Positions 6,371 through 17,449 of a DNA stretch of 64,000 nt are shown here, piece by piece. The position numbers were made by a program, and so were the translations under genes. Source of the DNA: a virus; the IMG/VR virus record IMGVR_UViG_3300020176_000008, positions 32,608 through 96,607 of that record, one strand, 5' to 3'. Position 1 is the first letter of the stretch; every line of letters starts with the position of its first letter. The notes under the pieces were generated by a model, which saw only the letters and a program-made list of their open reading frames with translations, was not told where the DNA came from and did no database searches.

Positions 6371-6394
6371 AGGGACCACTAGGTCCCTTTTTTT
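6371..6394 (+). terminator. Rho-independent terminator
   Basis: AGGGACC-ACTA-GGTCCCT followed by T tract. Confidence 0.9.
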
Positions 6395-6401
6395 ATAAAT
6401 A
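6394..6401 (+). promoter_or_regulatory. T4-type late promoter
   Basis: TATAAATA in intergenic DNA right after the terminator. Confidence 0.8.
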
Positions 6402-6427: not shown

Positions 6428-7171
6428 ATGGCCGCTCAACAAGGCTTCCAATACGAAATAAATGCAAGTAATATGCTTAAACCAATGGGCTTCGTGCCTA
6501 AATCGTTTAAGCCTGCAGGCGCTGGTCATGACCAGCCTGACTTAATGCTCTTGCATAAAAAGAAAGAAGCCGGGTGTGAGCTTAAGATTACTGCTGCATC
6601 AGCAGGTTCATTGGTCATAAAATACGATTCTAAAGATAAGAGAAACCCTTGGAAGTTCGGTGATATTAAAGCCGACGAGGATGAGAAAAGGTTCATTGCT
6701 GATCTTGCTAAAGAGGTTAAGTTGTTTGACCTTATCAAAAAGCAATGGAAAGAAAAACCGTATAAAAGAGATAAAGACGTTGAATGGAATGCAACTGCTG
6801 GTAAGATGACTCCTAAACAAAGATATGAAAGAGATCGTGATACCTTTGCCGATATCCGTGGTGAAATTCCTGCAACGAAAATAGAGCAGTATTATAATCG
6901 TAAAGATACACACTATGTCAATGTTGGCACGCATGGTTTCTATTTAATGGGAAAGGCAAACCCTCTGAAATTAAAAGGTGTTCCTACATTCGGTGCTTCT
7001 GCAAAGGCTACGTATAGAGCCCGTGTTCAATACAAGGGCTCTGGAAATTATCAGTTTACGTTTGAAATGCAATTTAGTATGAAATCTAAATCTCCATACA
7101 ACATTGCTCCAGTTGATGGAAAGAGCGTTACTATTTTAAAAGATAAATTAAACCTGGGATGTTTTGTATAA
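6428..7171 (+). CDS. PD-(D/E)XK nuclease-like protein
   Basis: QPDLML...GCELK catalytic-type motif with an upstream Glu (FQYE). Confidence 0.5.
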   Translation: MAAQQGFQYEINASNMLKPMGFVPKSFKPAGAGHDQPDLMLLHKKKEAGCELKITAASAGSLVIKYDSKDKRNPWKFGDIKADEDEKRFIADLAKEVKLFDLIKKQWKEKPYKRDKDVEWNATAGKMTPKQRYERDRDTFADIRGEIPATKIEQYYNRKDTHYVNVGTHGFYLMGKANPLKLKGVPTFGASAKATYRARVQYKGSGNYQFTFEMQFSMKSKSPYNIAPVDGKSVTILKDKLNLGCFV

Positions 7172-8122
7172 ATGAAAAACTTTATAGACTTTTTAACTGA
7201 AGCCTCTGGTAGTTCTTCTAATGAACACTTTGGCGTTGCATATGAAACTGCAACAGCGATGCATTTGCATCATATGACTGGTTCTAAGACTAACAACGAT
7301 CCAGAACATAAAAAACGAATGCAAGAGATTGGATCGAAGGGTAAAGCTGCTTTTGACAAGCTTCCTGATCATCTAAAGAGTCGTGCTTTGCAATCAGCTA
7401 AAGCATCCGCCGAGTCTTATATTGAAAGTCTTAAAAAGAATCACAAGATTAATCCTGCTGATATTCATGAAGTTCATCATACTTCAAAGGGAATCGATCA
7501 TTTGATTAATGCTAAAGCTGATCGTATTCAAAACCCGCATGACGTTGTTGTTAAGACTAAAGATGGAAAACTACATGGAGCGTCTTTAAAGGCAACGCAA
7601 GGTACTCTAAGTAATAACGGTATCGGTACTTTCGACAGTCAGAATAAAGGTCATATTAAAACTGAGGTTGGCTCTATATGGGCAAAAGGTAAAAAGAAAG
7701 CCGGCTTAGAAGGCAAGAGCGGAGCAGAAATTAAAGCCGTACGTAATGATCCTAAAGTAAAAGCTGCAAATAAAGAAACACAGGCAGAGGCTGCAGCACA
7801 CCATAGTAAACAGTTCAACAAGGCTTCTATTGAAGATCAACGTAAGCATCTACGTTATATTATGAAATCTGAAAAACCTGCAGTACCATATGACTACGTC
7901 AATGGAGAAAAGAACAAGTCAGTTCCTAGCCATCAACTTGATCACGCTCAAGCTATTGAGAAGTCTAAGAAGTTTGAAATGCGTCATACCGCCGGAAGTA
8001 ATCTAGTTAAGATCCACGACGACGAAGGTAGACACGTGGCAACAGTTGAACACAGACCGACTCATGGTGCATTCTCTGGAGTACAAGTTAATACTAAAAT
8101 TGGTACTATGAAGGCAAGTTAA
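7172..8122 (+). CDS. Putative internal head protein with restriction-endonuclease-like motif
   Basis: N-terminus MKNFIDFLTE (capsid-targeting-like); YETATA...PHDVVV...ASLK. Confidence 0.45.
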   Translation: MKNFIDFLTEASGSSSNEHFGVAYETATAMHLHHMTGSKTNNDPEHKKRMQEIGSKGKAAFDKLPDHLKSRALQSAKASAESYIESLKKNHKINPADIHEVHHTSKGIDHLINAKADRIQNPHDVVVKTKDGKLHGASLKATQGTLSNNGIGTFDSQNKGHIKTEVGSIWAKGKKKAGLEGKSGAEIKAVRNDPKVKAANKETQAEAAAHHSKQFNKASIEDQRKHLRYIMKSEKPAVPYDYVNGEKNKSVPSHQLDHAQAIEKSKKFEMRHTAGSNLVKIHDDEGRHVATVEHRPTHGAFSGVQVNTKIGTMKAS

Positions 8123-8166
8123 TACTTTAGTATTATATGTACAACAAATCGAAGATATGGTATAAT
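8120..8166 (+). promoter_or_regulatory. Early-type promoter with upstream palindrome
   Basis: TAATACTTTAGTATTA, TGTACA (8138-8143), 17 nt, TATAAT (8161-8166). Confidence 0.8.
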
Positions 8167-8174
8167 ATTAATAT

Positions 8175-9407
8175 ATGTTAAAGCTTAAAGAATTCATCGC
8201 CGAAGAAAAGAACACCCACATGGAACACGTTGAGGATATGATCTTCAATGAAGGAGTTGAGGGTGCACGTAAATCTATTTTATTCTTACGCGATCTTCGC
8301 GACATGTTAGCCGGCAGTTCTACATCTAAAGTTACTGCAACGGTAAAATGGGATGGTGCTCCGGCCGTTTTTGCTGGCGTAGATCCAAGAGATGGTAAAT
8401 TCTTTGTTGCAAAGAAAGGCGTATTCAATAAATCGCCTAAGGTATATAAGACTGCGGCAGAAATTGATGCAGATACTTCGGGAGATCTTGCGGCAAAATT
8501 AAAGATCGCATTGATAGAATTCTCAAAGTTGGGCGTAAAAGAAGGTGTGTTCCAAGGTGATTTGATGTTCACCAAGAACGATCTTAAGAAAGAAAATATC
8601 GATGGACAGGATTATATAACCTTCCATCCAAATACTATTGTCTATGCTGTTCCGTATAATAGTGAACTAGGCAAGAAGATTAGAGGTTCAAAGATCGGTG
8701 TTGTTTGGCATACGACGTATTCCGGAAAAACATTCGAGACTATGAAAGCAAGTTTTGGTAAAACTATAGTTGACAAGTTAAACGAGGTCCAATCCGTTTG
8801 GATGGACGATGCTAATTATAGAGATTATTCTGGCACAGCGACGTTCACGAAAGCTGAGACAGATAGAGTCACTGCAGTTTTATCGAGTGCCGGGAAGTTA
8901 TTTGGGTCAATCAGCGCGCAAACCCTAAACGCAATCTCACGAGATGCAGATCTATTAGCTGCTGTGAAGACCTACAATAACTCCAAAGTTCGTAATGCAG
9001 AAAAAATCACAAACACAAAAGCACACGTAGAAGGTCTATACCATTATATCTATGACAGGTATCAGGGTATGATTGACCGTAGAAAGACAGAAGCTGGAAA
9101 AAATAAACAAGAAGACGCTCGCAAGAAAGTTCTTCAGTTCTTTGCCCATCACGACAAGAATCAGATTGTAGCCATATTCGATTTGATGAATCTGATTGTT
9201 GAAGCCAAACAGATGATTATCGATAAGATGAATAAAGCTGGTCACATAAATACTTTCTTAAGGACTGCAAACGGTTTTAAAGTAACTGGAGTCGAAGGAT
9301 TCGTTGCAATAGACCACCTATCTGGCGGTGCAGTTAAAATTGTAGATCGTATGGAATTTAGTAAAGCTAACTTTTCAGCTGATATTATCAAGGGATGGCA
9401 GAGATGA
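8175..9407 (+). CDS. DUF6267-like protein with ligase-type nucleotidyltransferase motifs
   Basis: KNTHMEHVED, TVKWDGAP (KxDG), FQGDLMF, VEGFVA, VKIVDR; N-terminus MLKLKEFIAE. Confidence 0.6.
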   Translation: MLKLKEFIAEEKNTHMEHVEDMIFNEGVEGARKSILFLRDLRDMLAGSSTSKVTATVKWDGAPAVFAGVDPRDGKFFVAKKGVFNKSPKVYKTAAEIDADTSGDLAAKLKIALIEFSKLGVKEGVFQGDLMFTKNDLKKENIDGQDYITFHPNTIVYAVPYNSELGKKIRGSKIGVVWHTTYSGKTFETMKASFGKTIVDKLNEVQSVWMDDANYRDYSGTATFTKAETDRVTAVLSSAGKLFGSISAQTLNAISRDADLLAAVKTYNNSKVRNAEKITNTKAHVEGLYHYIYDRYQGMIDRRKTEAGKNKQEDARKKVLQFFAHHDKNQIVAIFDLMNLIVEAKQMIIDKMNKAGHINTFLRTANGFKVTGVEGFVAIDHLSGGAVKIVDRMEFSKANFSADIIKGWQR

Positions 9408-9664
9408 TTAGGTATGATCAATTTAAACAAAGGCTATCTGAAGCAAAGAATCCCGATGATAAGATTGTTGCTCAATTAGAAACTTTAAGTAAAAATATTT
9501 CAAAATATGCGCACCGTTGGAATGATAATCCAAGTTCGCGTATGTATAAGTGGGTCGATACATATAACGACTTAAAAGAAAAACACAGACACGGCGCTTG
9601 GGTCACGTATTGTAAAAAACATGGATTTTCCTTAGGTCATGACGCTTACGATAACTTAGCATAG
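9404..9664 (+). CDS. Hypothetical protein, putative internal head protein
   Basis: ATGA overlap with upstream stop; MIRYDQFKQRLSE N-terminus. Confidence 0.55.
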   Translation: MIRYDQFKQRLSEAKNPDDKIVAQLETLSKNISKYAHRWNDNPSSRMYKWVDTYNDLKEKHRHGAWVTYCKKHGFSLGHDAYDNLA

Positions 9665-9673
9665 GATATTACG

Positions 9674-10111
9674 ATGATTACATTTAAAGAATATTTACAA
9701 GAAGAAAAAAATGGCCTATGGGCCAATATCCATGCTAAACGCAAACGTATTAAAGCTGGTTCCAATGAAAAGATGCGTAAGCCAGGATCTAAAGGAGCTC
9801 CGACCGATGCCGATTTTAAATCAGCAAACGAGGAATCAGAAATTGGTGAAGCGGCTATCGATGCTAAAGGGCATAAGTCTTCTACCGGTGGATTGACACA
9901 AAAAGGCGTTGATGCTTTTCGTAGAGAGAACCCAGGCAGTAAACTACAAACTGCAGTAACTACGAAACCATCTAAAATGGATCCTGATAGTAAGGATGCT
10001 AAACGTAGAAAATCTTTCTGTGCCCGTATGAGCGGCGTTGAAGGTCCTATGAAGGACGAGAACGGTAAACCAACACGTAAAGCACTTGCTCTTAAGAAGT
10101 GGAATTGTTAA
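9674..10111 (+). CDS. Conserved basic T4-like protein (DUF6321-like), putative internal head protein
   Basis: MITFKEYLQE; GGLT.KG...RKSFCARM...KWNC. Confidence 0.65.
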   Translation: MITFKEYLQEEKNGLWANIHAKRKRIKAGSNEKMRKPGSKGAPTDADFKSANEESEIGEAAIDAKGHKSSTGGLTQKGVDAFRRENPGSKLQTAVTTKPSKMDPDSKDAKRRKSFCARMSGVEGPMKDENGKPTRKALALKKWNC

Positions 10112-11649
10112 TGAGCGAATTAAATGACTTCTTGAAACTGATTTCTGAAGCTAAGGCCCAAGATCCTAAGCATCAGAAAATTAAAGAGATTAAGGAAACT
10201 GTTAGAGAAGACGTTAATGACTTCTTTGCACAGTTGGCTTCTGCGTCTCCAAAACACTTTGAAATTGAAAAAGAAGAAATCGATGAGCTAGTTGAAAAAA
10301 TCGAAGCTATAGAGCAGATCGAACAAGATATTATCCAGGAAGAAATTCCAGAAATTAAAAGTGAAGCTGATAAACAGGCAGAAGTACTTAGCTTGCTTAA
10401 AAAGCAGCCTGATGCTGTACCATTCTCACAGCCCAATCCAGAACCCACATCTAAAGATATTAAAGCTATCACCGATAAAATTAAGTTCATGGAACAATGG
10501 CTAGGAAAAATAACTGCCACTGGTCCAGGTTCAGGCGAAGTTAACTTTAGATATTTGGATGACGTTGAGCGTTCAACGATGACATCTGGTAATGATAATT
10601 GGGTGCTCGAATACGATGCTGCTTCAAAGAAAGTACAATTCACCAAAGATATTGGTCCAATAGATTCTGTTCAATTTGATGTTACTCATGAAGATGATAA
10701 TACACATGGTGAGGGAACTCTCACCTGGAATAATTTTGATCGCACATTAAATTTGCATCATAAAAACAGTGTTAGGCAACAAATTGGTCAAGAACAATAT
10801 TACCCGCCAGTTAAAAACATAACAGGTTCAACCATTACGAATGGTACGTTGGTTATGTTTGCTGGTGCAGAATCTGATAATAATGCAAGACTTCTAATTA
10901 CTCCTATGATTGCCAATGGCACGTACCCAAGTCTTTATGTTATGGGTATAACGACAGAAGACATAGTAAATGGAGAGACTGGGTTTGTAACAGCATTTGG
11001 TTACGTCAATGATGTTGACACTTCCATGTGGGAAGAAGGGGATATTCTTTATGCAAATCCTTTAGTTCCAGGTGGTTTAACAAATATAAAGCCAACAGCG
11101 CCAAATAATGTTATCCCTGTTGCAGCGGTTGTGCATAAAGATGCCGTTATTGGTCGAATCATAGTTCGTCCTACTGTCGAACAGGAGATGCAGTATGCTA
11201 GATTCTCTTCAGAGATCGACCAACATCCATTAACCGTCGATACTGCTTATCCAATTACATTTGGGGTTACTGACATCTCTCGTGGATTCCATGCCGATGG
11301 AGAAACTATTCCTGATTATTCAAAGATTTATACAGAAGAATCAGGTTTCTTTAAGTTTGATGTAACTATTTCTTTGACTTCGACTAACGCGGCTGCTAAG
11401 GCATTCTATGTATGGATGAGAAAGAACGGAGTTGACATTCCTCGTTCAGCAAAGCGTCAGTCTATAACAGGCAACGGAGTATATCAGCTTTTGGCTTATA
11501 CGCTTTCAGTTAGTCTTGCAAAGGATGATTACATTCAAATCATGTATGCAGCTTCTGATACTGCTATTATAATTGATGCACCTGACGTAACAGCATTCAG
11601 TCCTGCTATTCCTTCAGCAACGATAACTTGTACACAGATAGCACTATGA
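10111..11649 (+). CDS. Virion fibre/decoration-like protein (acidic N-terminus, beta-rich C-terminal modules)
   Basis: TAATG overlap gives start 10111; GEVNFRYLDDV motif; cement-like VKNITGSTITNGTLV module; C1q/BclA-like C-terminus with VWMRKNGVDIP. Confidence 0.5.
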   Translation: MSELNDFLKLISEAKAQDPKHQKIKEIKETVREDVNDFFAQLASASPKHFEIEKEEIDELVEKIEAIEQIEQDIIQEEIPEIKSEADKQAEVLSLLKKQPDAVPFSQPNPEPTSKDIKAITDKIKFMEQWLGKITATGPGSGEVNFRYLDDVERSTMTSGNDNWVLEYDAASKKVQFTKDIGPIDSVQFDVTHEDDNTHGEGTLTWNNFDRTLNLHHKNSVRQQIGQEQYYPPVKNITGSTITNGTLVMFAGAESDNNARLLITPMIANGTYPSLYVMGITTEDIVNGETGFVTAFGYVNDVDTSMWEEGDILYANPLVPGGLTNIKPTAPNNVIPVAAVVHKDAVIGRIIVRPTVEQEMQYARFSSEIDQHPLTVDTAYPITFGVTDISRGFHADGETIPDYSKIYTEESGFFKFDVTISLTSTNAAAKAFYVWMRKNGVDIPRSAKRQSITGNGVYQLLAYTLSVSLAKDDYIQIMYAASDTAIIIDAPDVTAFSPAIPSATITCTQIAL

Positions 11650-11661
11650 ATATTTAAGTCA

Positions 11662-11669
11662 TATAAATA
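11662..11669 (+). promoter_or_regulatory. T4-type late promoter
   Basis: Intergenic TATAAATA about 30 nt before the 11700 start. Confidence 0.75.
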
Positions 11670-11699
11670 ATACATATTACTTATTATAGATGGATAAAA

Positions 11700-13343
11700 A
11701 TGAAAAGATATAAGCAACTCATAAAAGAATTGCCGTCAAAAAAGGTTGTGTTCGCATTCGGCAGGTTTCAGCCTCCGACGAATGGTCACGCACTTTTAGT
11801 CAATGCGGTAACTAAGTTGGCATCTGCTCAGAAGGCAGATCATGTCATTTACACATCCCGTACTCAAGACAAAAAATCAAATCCACTTCCAGCTAACCGC
11901 AAGGTATATTATCTTAAGCGGATGTTTCCCCATGCCAAATTCATGGCGGCAACCGATAACATGCGCACATTCATGGAAGTGGCTGCCGAGTTATCTAAGA
12001 AGTATAAGCATCTCGTAATGATTGCTGGCTCGGATAGAGTTGCTGAATATAAGAAACTATTAGATAAGTATAACGGAACCACATTCAACTTTGAAACTAT
12101 CGAAGTTGTTTCTGCCGGAGAGCGTGATCCAGACTCGGATACTGCATCGGGAATGTCTGGTACTAAGATGCGTGAAGCTGCCAAGAAAGGTAACTTTGCC
12201 GCGTTTAAGAAAGGTCTGCCACATGGTATTACTGAGTTAGATGCTAAACGTCTAATGAATGAAATCCGTGAAGGTATGGGTATCGATGCTATTAAAGAAT
12301 CTATCCAGTTCGAAAGAGATACAATTAGAGAATCATACCATTCTGGCAATATCTTCAACGTAGGAGATAAGGTACTATTTGAGGAGCAGGTATGCGAGAT
12401 CGTGAAACGTGGATCTAACCATGTTTTAATCCAATTGCAGGATGGGTCATTGGAAAGTAAATGGCTAAATCAAGTACAAGTATTTGAAGATGTGGCACAA
12501 GAAGTCACCGAGGAAATAAACGAAATGAAATATACCGCATCTGACAAAATTAAAGTCGCAAGAGTAATTGCAATGTCTCTCGGCTTAGAAGAACCTACTA
12601 GTAATAATCCGGAACTTCTTGTCAATACTGCATTACGTAGAATCAAGAATAAGACATTTTCTGCCCGCGGAAAAGAAATCGTTGCCAACATGCTAGATGT
12701 TGCAAAAGAAGCCGGAATCAAATATGATGAGAAGCTTGCCGTGGCATTTAAGCAATCTGAGGTAGATGAAGAAGTTGTTGGAAAGTCATTGCACTGCGGT
12801 GATAATTCAGTGCGCGTCTTGAAAATTAAGCATCATCTTGGAGAAGAAGCAGATGATGATGAAGAAGAGGAAGAAATGTCCGACGATGATTTGGATAAAG
12901 TAGCCGATTCAATGAATGACGATCATATGCTTCACGGATATGACGACGAAGAATTAGATATCATCGATGACGAAACTGGCGAGAAGGTCGACGAACTCAA
13001 AGAAGAAACTTTGAATGAAGTATTAAGCCGTCAAGAAAGAATCAAGTCTAAGATCAGGTTTGCTCGTACCAAGAGTAAGCGTGAACGTAGATTGCGAATC
13101 GCATTAAAAACTAGATCGTCTGTTAAGAAGGTAAATACTAGAGCTAGACGATTAGCAGTTAAAGCTTTAAAGATGCGAATTGCTAAAAGACCTTTAAACA
13201 AATTGTCTGTCGGTGAAAAAGAAAGACTAGAAAAAATAGTACAAAAGCGTAAATCTGTTATCAATAGATTAGCTATGCGTATGGTACCTAAAGTACGCAA
13301 GTATGAAAACGATCGTTTGGTTCATAGTACTTATACTAAATAA
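11700..13343 (+). CDS. Cytidylyltransferase-like (HIGH-superfamily) nucleotidyltransferase with long C-terminal extension
   Basis: FGRFQPPTNGH, IAGSDR, AGERDPD, MSGTKMR; acidic stretch then basic helical tail. Confidence 0.75.
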   Translation: MKRYKQLIKELPSKKVVFAFGRFQPPTNGHALLVNAVTKLASAQKADHVIYTSRTQDKKSNPLPANRKVYYLKRMFPHAKFMAATDNMRTFMEVAAELSKKYKHLVMIAGSDRVAEYKKLLDKYNGTTFNFETIEVVSAGERDPDSDTASGMSGTKMREAAKKGNFAAFKKGLPHGITELDAKRLMNEIREGMGIDAIKESIQFERDTIRESYHSGNIFNVGDKVLFEEQVCEIVKRGSNHVLIQLQDGSLESKWLNQVQVFEDVAQEVTEEINEMKYTASDKIKVARVIAMSLGLEEPTSNNPELLVNTALRRIKNKTFSARGKEIVANMLDVAKEAGIKYDEKLAVAFKQSEVDEEVVGKSLHCGDNSVRVLKIKHHLGEEADDDEEEEEMSDDDLDKVADSMNDDHMLHGYDDEELDIIDDETGEKVDELKEETLNEVLSRQERIKSKIRFARTKSKRERRLRIALKTRSSVKKVNTRARRLAVKALKMRIAKRPLNKLSVGEKERLEKIVQKRKSVINRLAMRMVPKVRKYENDRLVHSTYTK

Positions 13344-13400
13344 GTATCCAGAGATACATTATACCAAACATACAGAATTAAACTTCGATCGGATTAAAAT

Positions 13401-13856
13401 ATGGACGAATTAACAAAATCACTTAACAAATGTCTGGCAAATACGTTCATAATGTATTTCAAAACACATTCATACCATTGGAATGTGGAAGGTATTCACT
13501 TTAGTCAGTATCATAAATTCTTCGGTGATCTATACGAAGAAGTCCATGGTGCCGTAGACACTATTGCAGAAAAGATTCGTATCGAAGGTCCATATGCTCC
13601 AATTAGTCTGAGCGAATTGTATAATAATGCTACACTAGAAGAAGACAAAGAAAAGCCACAGACGTGTTACGCCATGGTTGTTAGCACATATGCTGCAAAT
13701 GCATCTGTTATTGGTTGTTTACAAGAAGCGTTTGATATGGCTAATCAAATGAACAAACAAGGACTTGCTGATTTCTTGGCAGGTCGTTTAGATATCCATA
13801 AGAAGCACGAATGGATGCTTCGTGTTTCAATGAAGTTAAATGAAGGGGAAATGTAA
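13401..13856 (+). CDS. dps: Dps/ferritin-like protein
   Basis: KTHSYHWNVEG...YHKFFGDLYEE...DTIAEKIR...HKKHEWML ferroxidase motifs. Confidence 0.9.
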   Translation: MDELTKSLNKCLANTFIMYFKTHSYHWNVEGIHFSQYHKFFGDLYEEVHGAVDTIAEKIRIEGPYAPISLSELYNNATLEEDKEKPQTCYAMVVSTYAANASVIGCLQEAFDMANQMNKQGLADFLAGRLDIHKKHEWMLRVSMKLNEGEM

Positions 13857-13857
13857 A

Positions 13858-14709
13858 ATGAATTTTAAACAATTTTCAGAACAGAAGTTAAAAGGCAATC
13901 AACATAAGCTTGATAAAAACGGCAATGGTAAACTAGATGCTGATGATTTTAAAAAATTACAAGCTGAAGAAAATGATGAAAACGCCAACGATGTAGTTGA
14001 TACTTCAGATTTTAAATTAGATAAAAACGGTAAAAAATATAAAGCCGGCAAGATCGTTTTTAAGCACGGCGAGGACGACGGCAAGAATAATATGTCTGAA
14101 GCTGCAGAAGAAATGTCTGACGCGGAAATGAAAAAACGTGAAGACTATGTCAAAGGCATGAAAAAGAATTATAAATCATTCGTTGACAAATATGGCAAAG
14201 ATCGTGCAAAAAATATCATGTATGCTACTGCTACCAAGATGGCTATGAAAGAAGATCAGGTAGAAGAAGGCTGGGATGACATGCAAAAGATGGTTAAGAA
14301 GAATGCTGAAAAGCAAAAGACTTCTACCATGACTAAGCATGATATTAAGAAAACAGACACTGGTACCGTTTATACTAAACAACGTGATCCAGATGGCATG
14401 AGCAAAGAGTTCAAGAGAGATAACTCCGAAGTTAAGCGCGGGCGTGGCCGTCCTAAAAAGAACCAATTTGCTGAAGCACTAGAATTTTTAATGGACCTTA
14501 CAGAAGAGCAATTCGACCAGGTAGTTGAAGAAGGACTCGATTCTTTCGTTGAATCATATATCGACGAAGGCAAGGGTTATGCTCCAGGTTGGATGATCAA
14601 CGCCGATCCTGAGCTCAAGAAAAAATTAGATGCCAAAAAAGCTAAACAGAAAGCTATGAAAGCATCTATGGGTAATCCTAACGCTGGTAAACCAGCAAGC
14701 AATAAATAA
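13858..14709 (+). CDS. Putative internal head protein with EF-hand-like loop
   Basis: MNFKQFSE; LDKNGNGKLDADD; repeated xxE sites; AT-hook-like RGRGRPKK. Confidence 0.5.
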   Translation: MNFKQFSEQKLKGNQHKLDKNGNGKLDADDFKKLQAEENDENANDVVDTSDFKLDKNGKKYKAGKIVFKHGEDDGKNNMSEAAEEMSDAEMKKREDYVKGMKKNYKSFVDKYGKDRAKNIMYATATKMAMKEDQVEEGWDDMQKMVKKNAEKQKTSTMTKHDIKKTDTGTVYTKQRDPDGMSKEFKRDNSEVKRGRGRPKKNQFAEALEFLMDLTEEQFDQVVEEGLDSFVESYIDEGKGYAPGWMINADPELKKKLDAKKAKQKAMKASMGNPNAGKPASNK

Positions 14710-14737
14710 GTATAACATTCCAAATAAGGAGAATAAA

Positions 14738-15319
14738 ATGGCACTATGGACAAATAAAGACGAGGAAGCTGGTAAGCCAAAGTACTTGTCAGACGCCGAT
14801 AAGGCAAATACATACGGCGCTGATGCCGCCGAGACTGCCGCCACGCCCGGTGTGACTGCAGGTTGGGTTCTAAAAACTGAAGGTACCGGCGGTCGTGCTG
14901 GTCGTGTTACATATGAAACAATGGTCGCAATGGGTTCAATGAGTACTGATGGTGATTCAGTACTTACTACACAGACACGCACTATTACTATTAGCGGTCA
15001 ACCGGCTAATGTATCTGCCGTTCTAGGCGATGAAGAGACAGTTGCATTCTCAGTAACAGCATCAGTTTCACCTGCAAGTTCTTCAACATTAGTATACGCA
15101 TGGGAATTCTCTGAAAACGGTGGTTCTACATGGGATGATGCACAACCAGAATGGGCAACAGGATTTAATACTGCTGAAATCACCATCGCTAATGCTGATG
15201 TCGATCTAGGCGGCGGCGCTGGCGATCTAAATGGATATCAGTTCCGTTGTGTAGTTTCTACTGACGGCGCCTCTGATGTAACTTCTGATGCTGCTACACT
15301 AACTGTAGCTACACCTTAA
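14738..15319 (+). CDS. Virion structural protein with C-terminal Ig-like domain
   Basis: MALW...AGWV...GGRAGRV.YETMVAM; ITISGQP...YAWEFS...GYQFRCVVS Ig pattern. Confidence 0.65.
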   Translation: MALWTNKDEEAGKPKYLSDADKANTYGADAAETAATPGVTAGWVLKTEGTGGRAGRVTYETMVAMGSMSTDGDSVLTTQTRTITISGQPANVSAVLGDEETVAFSVTASVSPASSSTLVYAWEFSENGGSTWDDAQPEWATGFNTAEITIANADVDLGGGAGDLNGYQFRCVVSTDGASDVTSDAATLTVATP

Positions 15320-15349
15320 TTAAATGCGGGTTAACTACCCGCGTATATT

Positions 15350-15706
15350 ATGAATTTTAAATTGACTGATGACAACTTCATCCTGTATGCTATGAAGCAC
15401 TATGATAATACACAGTGCCATAGTGTACAGGAATTTGAAGAAGATTTACGAAGGTTTCTCTATTTGAAGAAACTTTTCAGGCGGTATTCGGAGGGCGAAC
15501 TTAGAGAGCGATTGATTCTAAACCATCTAATAGTATTGTATAATATTTTTGGAGAGTGTTTAAATGAAATGCTGCTATTCAAAGTCGACAAAGAACACTG
15601 GCCGGCATTAAAGACTTTCATGGTATACTTAGGTAGACTAGAAGAGTCGGAACTAACAGACGTCACTTTAGATCAGAACATAGTAAGTATATTAAGGAAA
15701 ATTTAA
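15350..15706 (+). CDS. Conserved T4-like hypothetical protein
   Basis: NFILYAMKHYDN...EFEEDL...LILNHLIVLYNIFG. Confidence 0.7.
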   Translation: MNFKLTDDNFILYAMKHYDNTQCHSVQEFEEDLRRFLYLKKLFRRYSEGELRERLILNHLIVLYNIFGECLNEMLLFKVDKEHWPALKTFMVYLGRLEESELTDVTLDQNIVSILRKI

Positions 15707-16251
15707 TGAATTCCACAACTGACAATTTAATTGCATTCAGGGTCTTATATATGTTGGTCACTCCATTTGAGAAGACTGATGCGTATAAGTTCGGAATCAT
15801 CGACAAAGATGGTAATGCGTTAAAGAAGGTTAAAGATTTAGATGACTCTGAAGAAAGAGATTCGTATACTGCGTTACATAGATTAGTTTTTAATCTTAAA
15901 AAATTATTAGGTAAAGTTCCAGGTGGAAAAACTAAGTTTGCTTCTGTAATGGCAGCATATTGGTTGATTAAAGAAAATCTAAATGTACGTACATCAATTA
16001 AAGAACATGAGTTGATTGAAACTATTCATGCAATAGAATCTAAAAACTTATGCATGGTTGAAGAAGAATTGGATTTTGCTGATTTAATAAAAAATATTGA
16101 CCCACTTGAAGAAGATGCTGTAGCAGCTATCGCTAATGTGGTTGGTGATGGCACTGCTACATCTGTTGATTATCCAGCAATAAAACCTAAGAAAAAGAAA
16201 ACCCTAAAATTATTCCGCAGACAGAAGGATGGAGAATATGAAAAAGTTTAA
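15706..16251 (+). CDS. Conserved T4-like hypothetical protein
   Basis: TPFEKTDAYKFGIIDKDG...LVFNLKKLL. Confidence 0.7.
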   Translation: MNSTTDNLIAFRVLYMLVTPFEKTDAYKFGIIDKDGNALKKVKDLDDSEERDSYTALHRLVFNLKKLLGKVPGGKTKFASVMAAYWLIKENLNVRTSIKEHELIETIHAIESKNLCMVEEELDFADLIKNIDPLEEDAVAAIANVVGDGTATSVDYPAIKPKKKKTLKLFRRQKDGEYEKV

Positions 16252-17449
16252 TCAATTTATGACAGAAGCTATTGCCGAATCGGATGCTGCGTGGGCTGCC
16301 GCTGAAGCAAAGCGCAAGGAGCAAGAAGCCAAAAAAGCTTTAACTAAAAAGGATGCTAGCACTGTCGACAAGATTCGTGCTATGATGGCTAAAGAGAAAA
16401 TGAAGGAAGAAGTCGAGATTGAAGAAGCAAATACTCCTTCTGATGCTGATTTACATAAGACGCTTGGCCCTACCAAGAATATGCAGCAAGGAGTTGATGC
16501 TTTAAAGAAAAAGCATGGAATGTCTGATGATGAGGCTAAAAAACATGTTCGTAGATTGATGGGTATGAAAGAAGAAGCTGATCAGATTGACGAGTTAAGC
16601 AAAGGTACATTGCGTTCTTACATAGATAAGAAGTCGGATGATCATGAGTCCAATAGACAGGGTGTGATTGATGCACGTGATGCTCTACGCCAGCACAACA
16701 GGAACAGACCTTCCCTTGATGCACCTCTTAAACATCAATTTGACCATGACGCTAAGAAACGTGAACTAGAGAAAGATGTCAATGCTGCATCAAGAACTGC
16801 TACACGTTCAAATGTAAACATTCTTAAAGCAAAGAAACGTTTGAATAAAGAAGAAGTTACAATGAATGAAGCAAAAGACAAACAAGAGTATGGCTACGAA
16901 GGTGCCATGGCTATGACTCAATTAAAGACATTAACCCGTCATGGTGAACATATGATGGGTATGATGAAAGAAGATACAGATCTTCCGGAATGGGTTCAGT
17001 CAAAGATTACTCTAGCAACTGACTATGTTCAAACCGCTCATGATTATTTAATGAGCGAAATGAATGAAGAGCTGTCAAAATCAGCAGAACAAATTGATGA
17101 ATTGAGCAAGTCTACATTAGGTTCATACGTTAGAAAAGCATCCGGCAATGCGGCATCTGCTACTCGTGCTGCTGGCGTAGAAGCTGGTGCACGAGGACCA
17201 AACCGGTTTGCTAATATGGACTCTAAAGAAAAACGTGCTGAAAAGAGACTAAGTGGTGTATCTAAAGCAGTTGATCGTTTGGCTAAAGAAGATATGCATA
17301 CTGATAAGAAGGAAGATCCTCCTTTTGATGGTCCATATTCTAAAAAGAAAGTTGCTACTCCAGGTAAACAGGGTTATGGCATGTCAGCAGCTCGTCATCT
17401 AGCACGTCAAGCTTTACAAAAAGTTGCAGACAAACAAAAGAATAAGTAA
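16238..17449 (+). CDS. Putative internal head protein with repeated IDELSKxTLxSY motif
   Basis: GGAG RBS, MKKFNQFMTE; QIDELSKGTLRSY and QIDELSKSTLGSY. Confidence 0.55.
   Translation: MKKFNQFMTEAIAESDAAWAAAEAKRKEQEAKKALTKKDASTVDKIRAMMAKEKMKEEVEIEEANTPSDADLHKTLGPTKNMQQGVDALKKKHGMSDDEAKKHVRRLMGMKEEADQIDELSKGTLRSYIDKKSDDHESNRQGVIDARDALRQHNRNRPSLDAPLKHQFDHDAKKRELEKDVNAASRTATRSNVNILKAKKRLNKEEVTMNEAKDKQEYGYEGAMAMTQLKTLTRHGEHMMGMMKEDTDLPEWVQSKITLATDYVQTAHDYLMSEMNEELSKSAEQIDELSKSTLGSYVRKASGNAASATRAAGVEAGARGPNRFANMDSKEKRAEKRLSGVSKAVDRLAKEDMHTDKKEDPPFDGPYSKKKVATPGKQGYGMSAARHLARQALQKVADKQKNK

Follow-up and report, generated by a model that had tools for sequence, protein, structure and literature searches.

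Seven of twelve consecutive genes in a stretch of viral DNA open with a short peptide that is likely to be a capsid-targeting sequence of the bacteriophage T4 type, combining targeting with cleavage. The stretch, hereafter the window, is 64,000 nucleotides long and represents bases 32608-96607 of the 102.5-kb IMG/VR record IMGVR_UViG_3300020176_000008, the completeness of which is estimated at 62%. The source is an uncultured marine T4-like myovirus, Kyanoviridae-like. The tagged genes lie between positions 7172 and 17449 of the window and follow the pattern M-x-x-[F/Y/L]-x-x-[F/Y/L]-[I/L/M]-x-E. What the analysis shows is the motif and its enrichment, the separability of the tag, the protease gene, the protein folds and a bias in charge. 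It is probable that the virion carries the tagged proteins ready-made and that they enter the host along with the DNA, delivery into the next host being somewhat less likely than the targeting and cleavage function of the tag.

The N-terminal tag

The features of the window described here are on the + strand. The strongly tagged genes are those at 7172..8122 (MKNFIDFLTE↓A, the arrow marking the predicted cut), 8175..9407 (MLKLKEFIAE↓E), 9404..9664 (MIRYDQFKQRLSE↓A, a 13-residue variant), 9674..10111 (MITFKEYLQE↓E), 11700..13343 (MKRYKQLIKE↓L), 13858..14709 (MNFKQFSE↓Q, an 8-residue variant) and 16238..17449 (MKKFNQFMTE↓A). When the two length variants are aligned on the glutamate, positions 4 and 7 are aromatic or large hydrophobic in 7/7 strong cases. 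The tag ends in L-T-E, I-A-E, L-S-E, L-Q-E or I-K-E in five proteins, and in the near variants M-T-E (16238) and F-S-E (13858) in the others.

A sequence-only reading of the window had quoted eight N-termini, all of which are exact in sequence, position and strand, and its count of at least seven tagged proteins holds for the strong cases. Its weaker eighth case, at 10111..11649, has the leader as quoted (MSELNDFLKLISE↓A); however, this leader is longer and different, and the protein of 512 residues is acidic (isoelectric point, pI, 4.7), which makes the case doubtful and keeps it apart from the others. The leader is closer to the propeptide of T4 Alt (MELITELFDE) than to the tag of the T4 internal proteins (IPs), and the C-terminal part resembles phage cement, Mtd or fibre-type modules. 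We regard the 10111 protein as a possible protease substrate outside the tagged set.

The spacing to the Shine-Dalgarno sequence prefers the starts at 9404, 13858 and 16238 over the in-frame upstream ATG codons at 9395, 13840 and 16229. The use of the second methionine as the start of the 9404 protein is supported because an orthologue reads MAE-MKTFKEHITE, and thus bears the canonical MKTFKEHITE.

A rule taken from the T4 literature independently of the window (^M..[FYWL]..[FYWL][IL].E) matches 4 of the 150 open reading frames (ORFs) of the 102.5-kb genome against 0.042 expected, and all four matches (4/4) are inside the cluster. A looser pattern, defined post hoc, matches 9/150 ORFs with about 1.4 expected, and 8/9 fall within the 12 consecutive genes. 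The enrichment extends to 85 related IMG/VR loci, where 139/1215 ORF starts match the tag pattern compared with 7/6014 internal methionines.

Conservation is confined to particular positions. Among 84 homologues of the 7172 protein (40-90% identity, first ten residues unfiltered), Phe is found at position 4 in 61, Phe, Tyr or Leu at position 7 in 69, Leu or Ile at position 8 in 61, and Glu at position 10 in 53, while the entropy exceeds 2.8 bits at positions 2, 3, 5, 6 and 9. The same positional pattern is displayed by 120 close homologues of the 8175 protein, which belongs to family DUF6267, with Glu10 in 112/120.

Prohead protease and residues shared with T4

Genes for a prohead protease of the gp21 type and a core protein of the gp22 type are recognizable by sequence in the genome. 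The protease gene (G000 8845-9498) matches Peptidase_S77 (PF03420, T4 gp21) with an E value of 1.5e-39 and 131 bits against a cut-off of 27, and the GELGHP and GVSSR blocks are kept in an alignment with T4 gp21. It is located between the portal and core genes and the genes for gp22 and gp23. The gene order 5' of the window is portal, small core genes, gp21-type protease, gp22 scaffold and gp23 capsid, and the window itself contains ribonucleotide reductase, ligase, gp32 and baseplate genes.

In the T4 record, the products of ipII and ipIII begin with MKTYQEFIAE↓A and that of ipI with MKTFKEF..., and gp23 is cut at FLTE↓A. The ...DFLTE↓A of the 7172 protein is identical to the gp23 cleavage site, and the 8175 tag shares EFIAE with T4 IPII and IPIII (QEFIAE↓A). 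Amber-suppression work in T4 attributed targeting mainly to residues 4 and 7 of the tag and processing to residues 8 and 10 (PMC9026906). The four positions conserved here (4, 7, 8 and 10) are those mapped in T4 for targeting and gp21 cleavage.

The gp23-type capsid gene of this genome (G000 10490-11734, outside the window) has the sequence ...AQALFE↓TSS aligned opposite the T4 site ...SFLTE↓AEIGG. The propeptide of its product probably ends in L-F-E.

In a megablast search of the cluster region against isolate phages, no nucleotide match was found. By protein comparison, the closest isolate is Melnitz, an OM43 phage of the Kyanoviridae, whose DUF6267 protein is 52% identical, followed by hundreds of cyanomyoviruses and the Pelagibacter phage HTVC008M.

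The tag as a separable peptide

The AF2 models of the 7172 and 8175 proteins have predicted local distance difference test (pLDDT) values of 93.7 and 94.0, with the first 12 and the first 9 residues, respectively, below 50. Between Glu10 and the first conserved residues of the core lies a linker of 7 to 36 residues. The cyanophage orthologues of the DUF6267 protein and of the nucleotidyltransferase encoded at 11700 have the conserved domain at their very N-terminus, as in MAKNTHLEHLEDD and MALDGKVCYFTFGRFQPPT, which leaves no space for a tag upstream. Of 150 DUF6267 representatives obtained by clustering at 50%, a strict tag is present on 40 and another short N-terminal extension on 58, and 24 begin with the domain itself.

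The same peptide is found on proteins of very different kinds. In the 85 related viral contigs, the tagged proteins fall into at least 25 unrelated sequence clusters, mostly without a Pfam family; the remaining clusters include large fusions, a PAP2 phosphatase, an AAA ATPase and a P-loop kinase of the zeta/AAA_33 type. Melnitz carries the tag on six syntenic genes, with endings such as ...FLSE, ...YITE and ...TMSE, and weaker tags are seen on syntenic genes of HTVC008M and of the soil Stenotrophomonas phage DLP6.

The peptide is conserved as such, with varied codons: at least 7 codons are used at position 8, both synonymous codons occur at positions 4, 7 and 10, and 116 distinct 30-mers encode the tag. 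These data bear on the possibility that the N-terminus has nothing to do with the capsid and is either a feature of translation initiation or mRNA at AT-rich gene starts, or a generic amphipathic helix used for membrane contact, oligomerization or recognition by another protease. The codons are indeed AT-rich (AAA, TTT, GAA), as expected at the starts of highly expressed genes, and the loose pattern also matches several unrelated ORFs elsewhere in the genome. However, conservation is specific to positions 4, 7, 8 and 10 through varied synonymous and non-synonymous codons, the pattern is limited to one gene cluster and to basic proteins, and orthologues do without it. The conserved positions also agree with the residues mapped experimentally in T4 (PMC9026906), and the tag finishes with the cleavage consensus of gp21, a protease for which the genome has a gene. 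A function unrelated to the capsid is therefore very unlikely.

The slot directly upstream of the DUF6267 gene holds at least four unrelated families across phages, and DUF6267, nucleotidyltransferase, DUF6321 and DUF5824 modules are fused in many combinations. Both observations would suit a leader that acts mainly at the DNA level, as a recombination site for the swapping of cargo cassettes, without a function of the peptide; such a role has been proposed for the IP locus of T-even phages. The diversity of the 30-nt tag DNA makes it a poor substrate for homologous recombination and fits selection on the peptide, and we consider a purely DNA-level role highly improbable. Recombination at the tag is otherwise compatible with a capsid-targeting function.

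Contig L098 (10975-12176 and 12793-13065) has the DUF6267 gene split into two ORFs and an almost identical tag (MKTFL-x-Y/F-...-E) on three consecutive unrelated genes, followed by a gene for a PAAR-motif protein. The idea of phage-specific tag flavours, which came from this contig, was rejected, as the tags of unrelated proteins have an identity at the variable positions of 0.222 within one phage and 0.218 across phages (permutation p = 0.42).

The enzymes of the cyanophages S-RSM4 and S-CAM9 are untagged, and small ORFs nearby (59-114 residues; L003:8597-8938, L003:7769-8023, L004:10465-10644 and L004:10876-11220) open with MKTFKQFREE, MKDFKKLREE, MKTFKQFQDLIE and MKTFRQFVNDITE. Cyanomyoviruses may thus carry the tag on small proteins resembling T4 IPs.

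Enzyme folds among the tagged proteins

Three of the tagged proteins had been described as nuclease-like, ligase-like and as a HIGH-family nucleotidyltransferase, and these assignments find support at the level of fold or family. The model of the 7172 protein superimposes with VIA-align to the restriction endonucleases HinP1I (PDB code 1ynm; Z 8.2, 198/241 residues, root mean square deviation (rmsd) 3.9) and MspI (1sa3; Z 7.4, 207 residues), and the next match has a Z of 5.6. Foldseek independently places MspI first (probability 0.75) and HinP1I third (0.47). Asp124 and the segment Ser138-Leu139-Lys140 are invariant in 61 homologues, the middle Ser being unusual for a D...(D/E/N/Q)-x-K motif. 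No Pfam family was found for the protein even at E values up to 10, nor any sequence match in the PDB, and it is therefore a fold relative of HinP1I and MspI and not a member of their family. A tblastn search with the 7172 protein against isolate phages returned nothing, so that its family is known only from metagenomes.

The DUF6267 protein (8175) is predicted to have the nucleotidyltransferase fold of the superfamily of ATP-dependent RNA/DNA ligases and capping enzymes, into which a helical bundle is inserted. Its best VIA-align matches are Trl1 (6n0t; Z 8.4, 201 residues, rmsd 4.3), NgrRnl (5cot; Z 8.3), REL1 (1xdn; Z 8.0), T4 Rnl2 (2hvq; Z 7.8) and T4 Rnl1 (Z 6.8). The top 13 matches are all ATP-dependent ligases; Z values of about 8 are middling, and the argument rests on the consistency of the list together with motif I, KWDG, in which Lys58 and Asp60 are invariant and Gly61 is nearly so (81 sequences, 34-56% identity). 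The top Foldseek matches are DNA ligases, although weak (E 0.07). No useful match came from sequence searches of the PDB with the proteins 7172, 8175 and 10111, and Foldseek searches of the PDB with the models of 7172 and 8175 gave no match at E ≤ 0.001. The two fold assignments rest on VIA-align and the conserved motifs.

The 11700 protein belongs, by sequence, to the HIGH-signature nucleotidyltransferases. It matches PF01467 (CTP_transf_like) with 25.5 bits against a cut-off of 21 and phrog_3041 ('cytidyltransferase') with an E value of 6.8e-74, contains the HxGH motif in GRFQPPTNGH, and ends in a long tail that is first acidic and then basic. An assignment as NMN adenylyltransferase (NadM/NadR) was rejected, as the best NCBIfam scores are 17.8 bits against a cut-off of 127 and 16.4 against 341. 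The DUF6267 and nucleotidyltransferase genes are neighbours in cyanophages, and many metagenomic proteins combine the two in one chain; because of this the two enzymes probably act together. The four further tagged proteins (9404, 9674, 13858 and 16238) are charged and have no known fold; 9404 has no known family, 9674 belongs to DUF6321, 13858 is highly charged with a weak AT-hook match, and the central module of 16238 is found again in other tagged and fused proteins.

DUF6267, HIGH nucleotidyltransferase, DUF6321, DUF5824 and the central module of 16238 occur fused in many orders, in proteins of up to 1379 residues that bear a single tag (L027:8674-12813, L073:3985-7071, L089:12295-13842, L021:11383-14133 and L016:15381-17372). 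These fusions suggest a functional linkage of the modules or a polyprotein-like cargo.

Charge and transcription signals

Once the tag is removed, 7/7 tagged proteins are basic, with pI values from 8.9 to 10.0, whereas their untagged neighbours have values of 4.1-6.3. The mature forms are calculated at 33.5 kDa and pI 9.7 for 7172, 44.5 kDa and 9.3 for 8175, 8.6 kDa and 9.1 for 9404, 14.7 kDa and 10.0 for 9674, and 61 kDa and 9.0 for 11700; 13858 is a protein of 31 kDa and pI 8.9, and 16238 one of 44 kDa and pI 9.2. A pI of at least 8.9 is shared by 7/7 tagged proteins compared with 16.5% of the other ORFs of the genome (Fisher p = 9e-6). The internal proteins of T4 are basic, and the charge of the tagged proteins fits proteins that lie among packaged DNA in the manner of these T4 proteins. 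The proposed likeness to the T4 capsid-targeting sequence is thus borne out by the same four functional positions, a gp21-type protease, a separable tag on unrelated proteins and a basic cargo.

The layout of predicted transcription signals fits late expression of the cluster. A strong intrinsic terminator with a GC-rich stem of 7 bp followed by a T run (6371..6388) closes the upstream cytosine-modification operon; a copy of TATAAATA, the T4 late-promoter consensus, lies at 6394..6401 (27 nt ahead of the opening gene of the cluster), and a second copy at 11662..11669, 31 nt before the 11700 gene, both being consensus matches only. The description of these proteins as late in the sequence-only reading stands in part. 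The terminator followed by TATAAATA at the opening of the cluster and the second copy agree with it, but TATAAATA is not significantly enriched in the whole window (11 found, 6.8 expected), and the best sigma-70-like promoter of the region (TGTACA-N17-TATAAT, extended TG; 8138..8166) precedes the DUF6267 gene, which may also be expressed before late times.

Packaging and delivery

We infer core binding, cleavage, retention, ejection and all of the biochemical activities, as well as any role in counter-defence. Late in infection, the tag would bind the scaffolding core of the assembling prohead, with aromatic positions 4 and 7 making the chief contribution. The gp21-type protease would then cut after Glu10, with Ile, Leu or Met at P3, and the basic proteins thus released would stay with the DNA inside the head and exit together with it at the following infection. 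The predicted cargo includes the restriction-endonuclease-fold protein 7172, the ligase-fold DUF6267 protein (8175) and the HIGH nucleotidyltransferase 11700. The four non-enzymatic basic proteins (9404, 9674, 13858 and 16238) may act like T4 IPII and IPIII.

The proteins could instead be targeted and cut as mere components of the core or of assembly, to be degraded, expelled or retained after ejection, with no enzyme delivered. The T4 core proteins gp22, gp67 and gp68 are substrates of gp21 that are degraded in maturation (T4 annotation; PMC9026906), and the cluster includes untagged structural genes such as that for the phrog_613 head protein at 14738. By contrast, two of the tagged proteins are compact and confidently modelled enzyme domains with invariant catalytic-type residues, which would be pointless in a scaffold, and the basic charge suits co-packing with DNA. 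In addition, all the T4 proteins loaded through the tag and tested, foreign ones included, are ejected into the cell (PMC9026906). A role restricted to assembly is thus quite unlikely.

Several points weigh against packaging and delivery through the tag. To our knowledge, no core protein that binds the tag has been identified even in T4. P3 is neither Ile nor Leu in two of the tags (Met in 16238, Phe in 13858), and two tags deviate in length (8 and 13 residues). The pelagiphage HTVC008M has degenerate tags, and Glu is missing from the expected position of its nucleotidyltransferase. The good sigma-70-like promoter before the DUF6267 gene is odd for a protein destined purely for the virion. The enzymes, at 33 to 61 kDa, are larger than the T4 internal proteins, yet T4 Alt (76 kDa) is packaged and injected. 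No virion proteomics, N-terminal or injection data were found in the literature for this phage or any relative. Likewise, no paper was found on capsid-targeting tags in cyanophages, pelagiphages or marine Kyanoviridae-like phages or on the virion proteins of Melnitz, nor on DUF6267 or on tagged cargo with a restriction or ligase fold.

Comparison with known systems

The mechanism is already known from T4, and the variant described here concerns a marine phage and enzyme-fold cargo. The closest counterparts are T4 IPI, IPII and IPIII, which, as summarized in PMC9026906 from Mullaney and Black (1996), likewise begin with a tag of ten residues in which positions 4 and 7 are aromatic, position 8 is Ile or Leu and position 10 is Glu. 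In both cases the tag is found on unrelated basic proteins, in a genome with a gp21-type protease. The T4 proteins are small (~8-21 kDa), non-enzymatic and scattered in the genome, whereas here 3/7 are enzyme-fold proteins of 33-61 kDa and the genes form one operon-like cluster, in a distant marine Kyanoviridae-like phage known from sequence alone. It has been suggested that T4-like phages load various proteins by means of the tag (PMC9026906).

A precedent for enzyme cargo is provided by T4 Alt, an ADP-ribosyltransferase that is loaded into the head, trimmed by gp21 and injected (T4 annotation; PMC9026906). It is a single enzyme of another family and its leader is not of the IP type; of the leaders found here, that of 10111 is closer to it than the other seven.

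In the polymorphic IP locus of T-even phages (Repoila et al. 1994, as cited in PMC3012670 and PMC9026906), unrelated proteins are exchanged while the tag is kept, as in the present case. According to those citing papers, that locus concerns small basic proteins of close T4 relatives on enterobacteria, in contrast to the at least 25 clusters, enzymes among them, of uncultured aquatic phages found here. The giant phages related to SPN3US and phiKZ also contain many head-internal proteins, including enzymes, that are delivered to the host, and their T4-related protease cuts after Glu; they differ in having other propeptides and cleavage motifs and an inner body, and no common ten-residue tag of the T4 type has been described for them (PMC5694885, PMC7411985).

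A possible pre-loaded kit and its significance

A broader and, taken as a whole, unlikely reading is that the tagged enzymes constitute a pre-loaded 'first-minute' nucleic-acid kit in abundant marine T4-like phages of the Melnitz and pelagimyophage types. The nuclease would ride in the head on DNA shielded by the cytosine hypermodification of the phage and, once inside the cell, attack the host DNA, which is unmodified. The enzyme with the ligase fold and the HIGH nucleotidyltransferase, to which it is often fused, would repair or modify nucleic acids of phage or host before phage genes are expressed. The cyanophage relatives with untagged orthologues would make the same enzymes only after infection.

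The link between hypermodification and the nuclease is attractive, but other neighbourhoods of the 7172 family give it no support: in three other contigs, no cytosine-modification cassette was found within 10 kb of the 7172-family gene. That nuclease and cassette travel together is accordingly unsupported. Gene 5 of Melnitz (L002:1-947), ~8 kb upstream of the tagged cluster, encodes a methylase annotated as M.HhaI, which recognizes GCGC, the site of HinP1I. Its presence alongside the HinP1I/MspI-type fold of the 7172 protein may be a coincidence or may reflect self-protection.

The T4 tag has so far been regarded mostly as a curiosity of the T-even internal proteins and an engineering tool. 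If delivery through the tag were true here, abundant ocean phages of streamlined heterotrophs (SAR11, OM43) would send varied proteins, enzymes included, ahead of gene expression, and the cargo slot would be a fast-changing arsenal. Many 'hypothetical' genes of marine phages would then share a single question, namely what is needed in the first minute of infection. An evolutionary switch between an expressed and a pre-packaged version of the same enzyme, set only by the presence of the tag, is also predicted. Melnitz and HTVC008M are both cultured, so that this reading is directly testable.

Other genes of the cluster

The first gene of the cluster (6428..7171) encodes an untagged basic protein of 247 residues (pI 9.6). 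Its homologues start with MTVRFKSFITE in three related contigs, and the family is thus tagged there and untagged here. Proteins with an R.HinP1I domain are among its language-model neighbours (score 0.92), which is a lead only, and comparison of the 6428 and 7172 families with hhalign revealed no relationship. The sequence of the 6428 protein includes QPD...ELK, reminiscent of a PD-(D/E)xK motif.

The gene at 14738..15319 encodes an untagged acidic protein that matches phrog_613 (head protein), and its counterpart in S-RSM4 is annotated as 'Structural protein'. The two untagged genes that follow, 15350-15706 and 15706-16251, are conserved in Melnitz, HTVC008M and cyanophages. A Dps/ferritin-like protein, untagged and acidic, is encoded at 13401..13856, within the cluster and outside the tagged set. 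An untagged Dps/ferritin-like gene is also present within the cluster of a distant 168-kb relative (L096:15573-16010).

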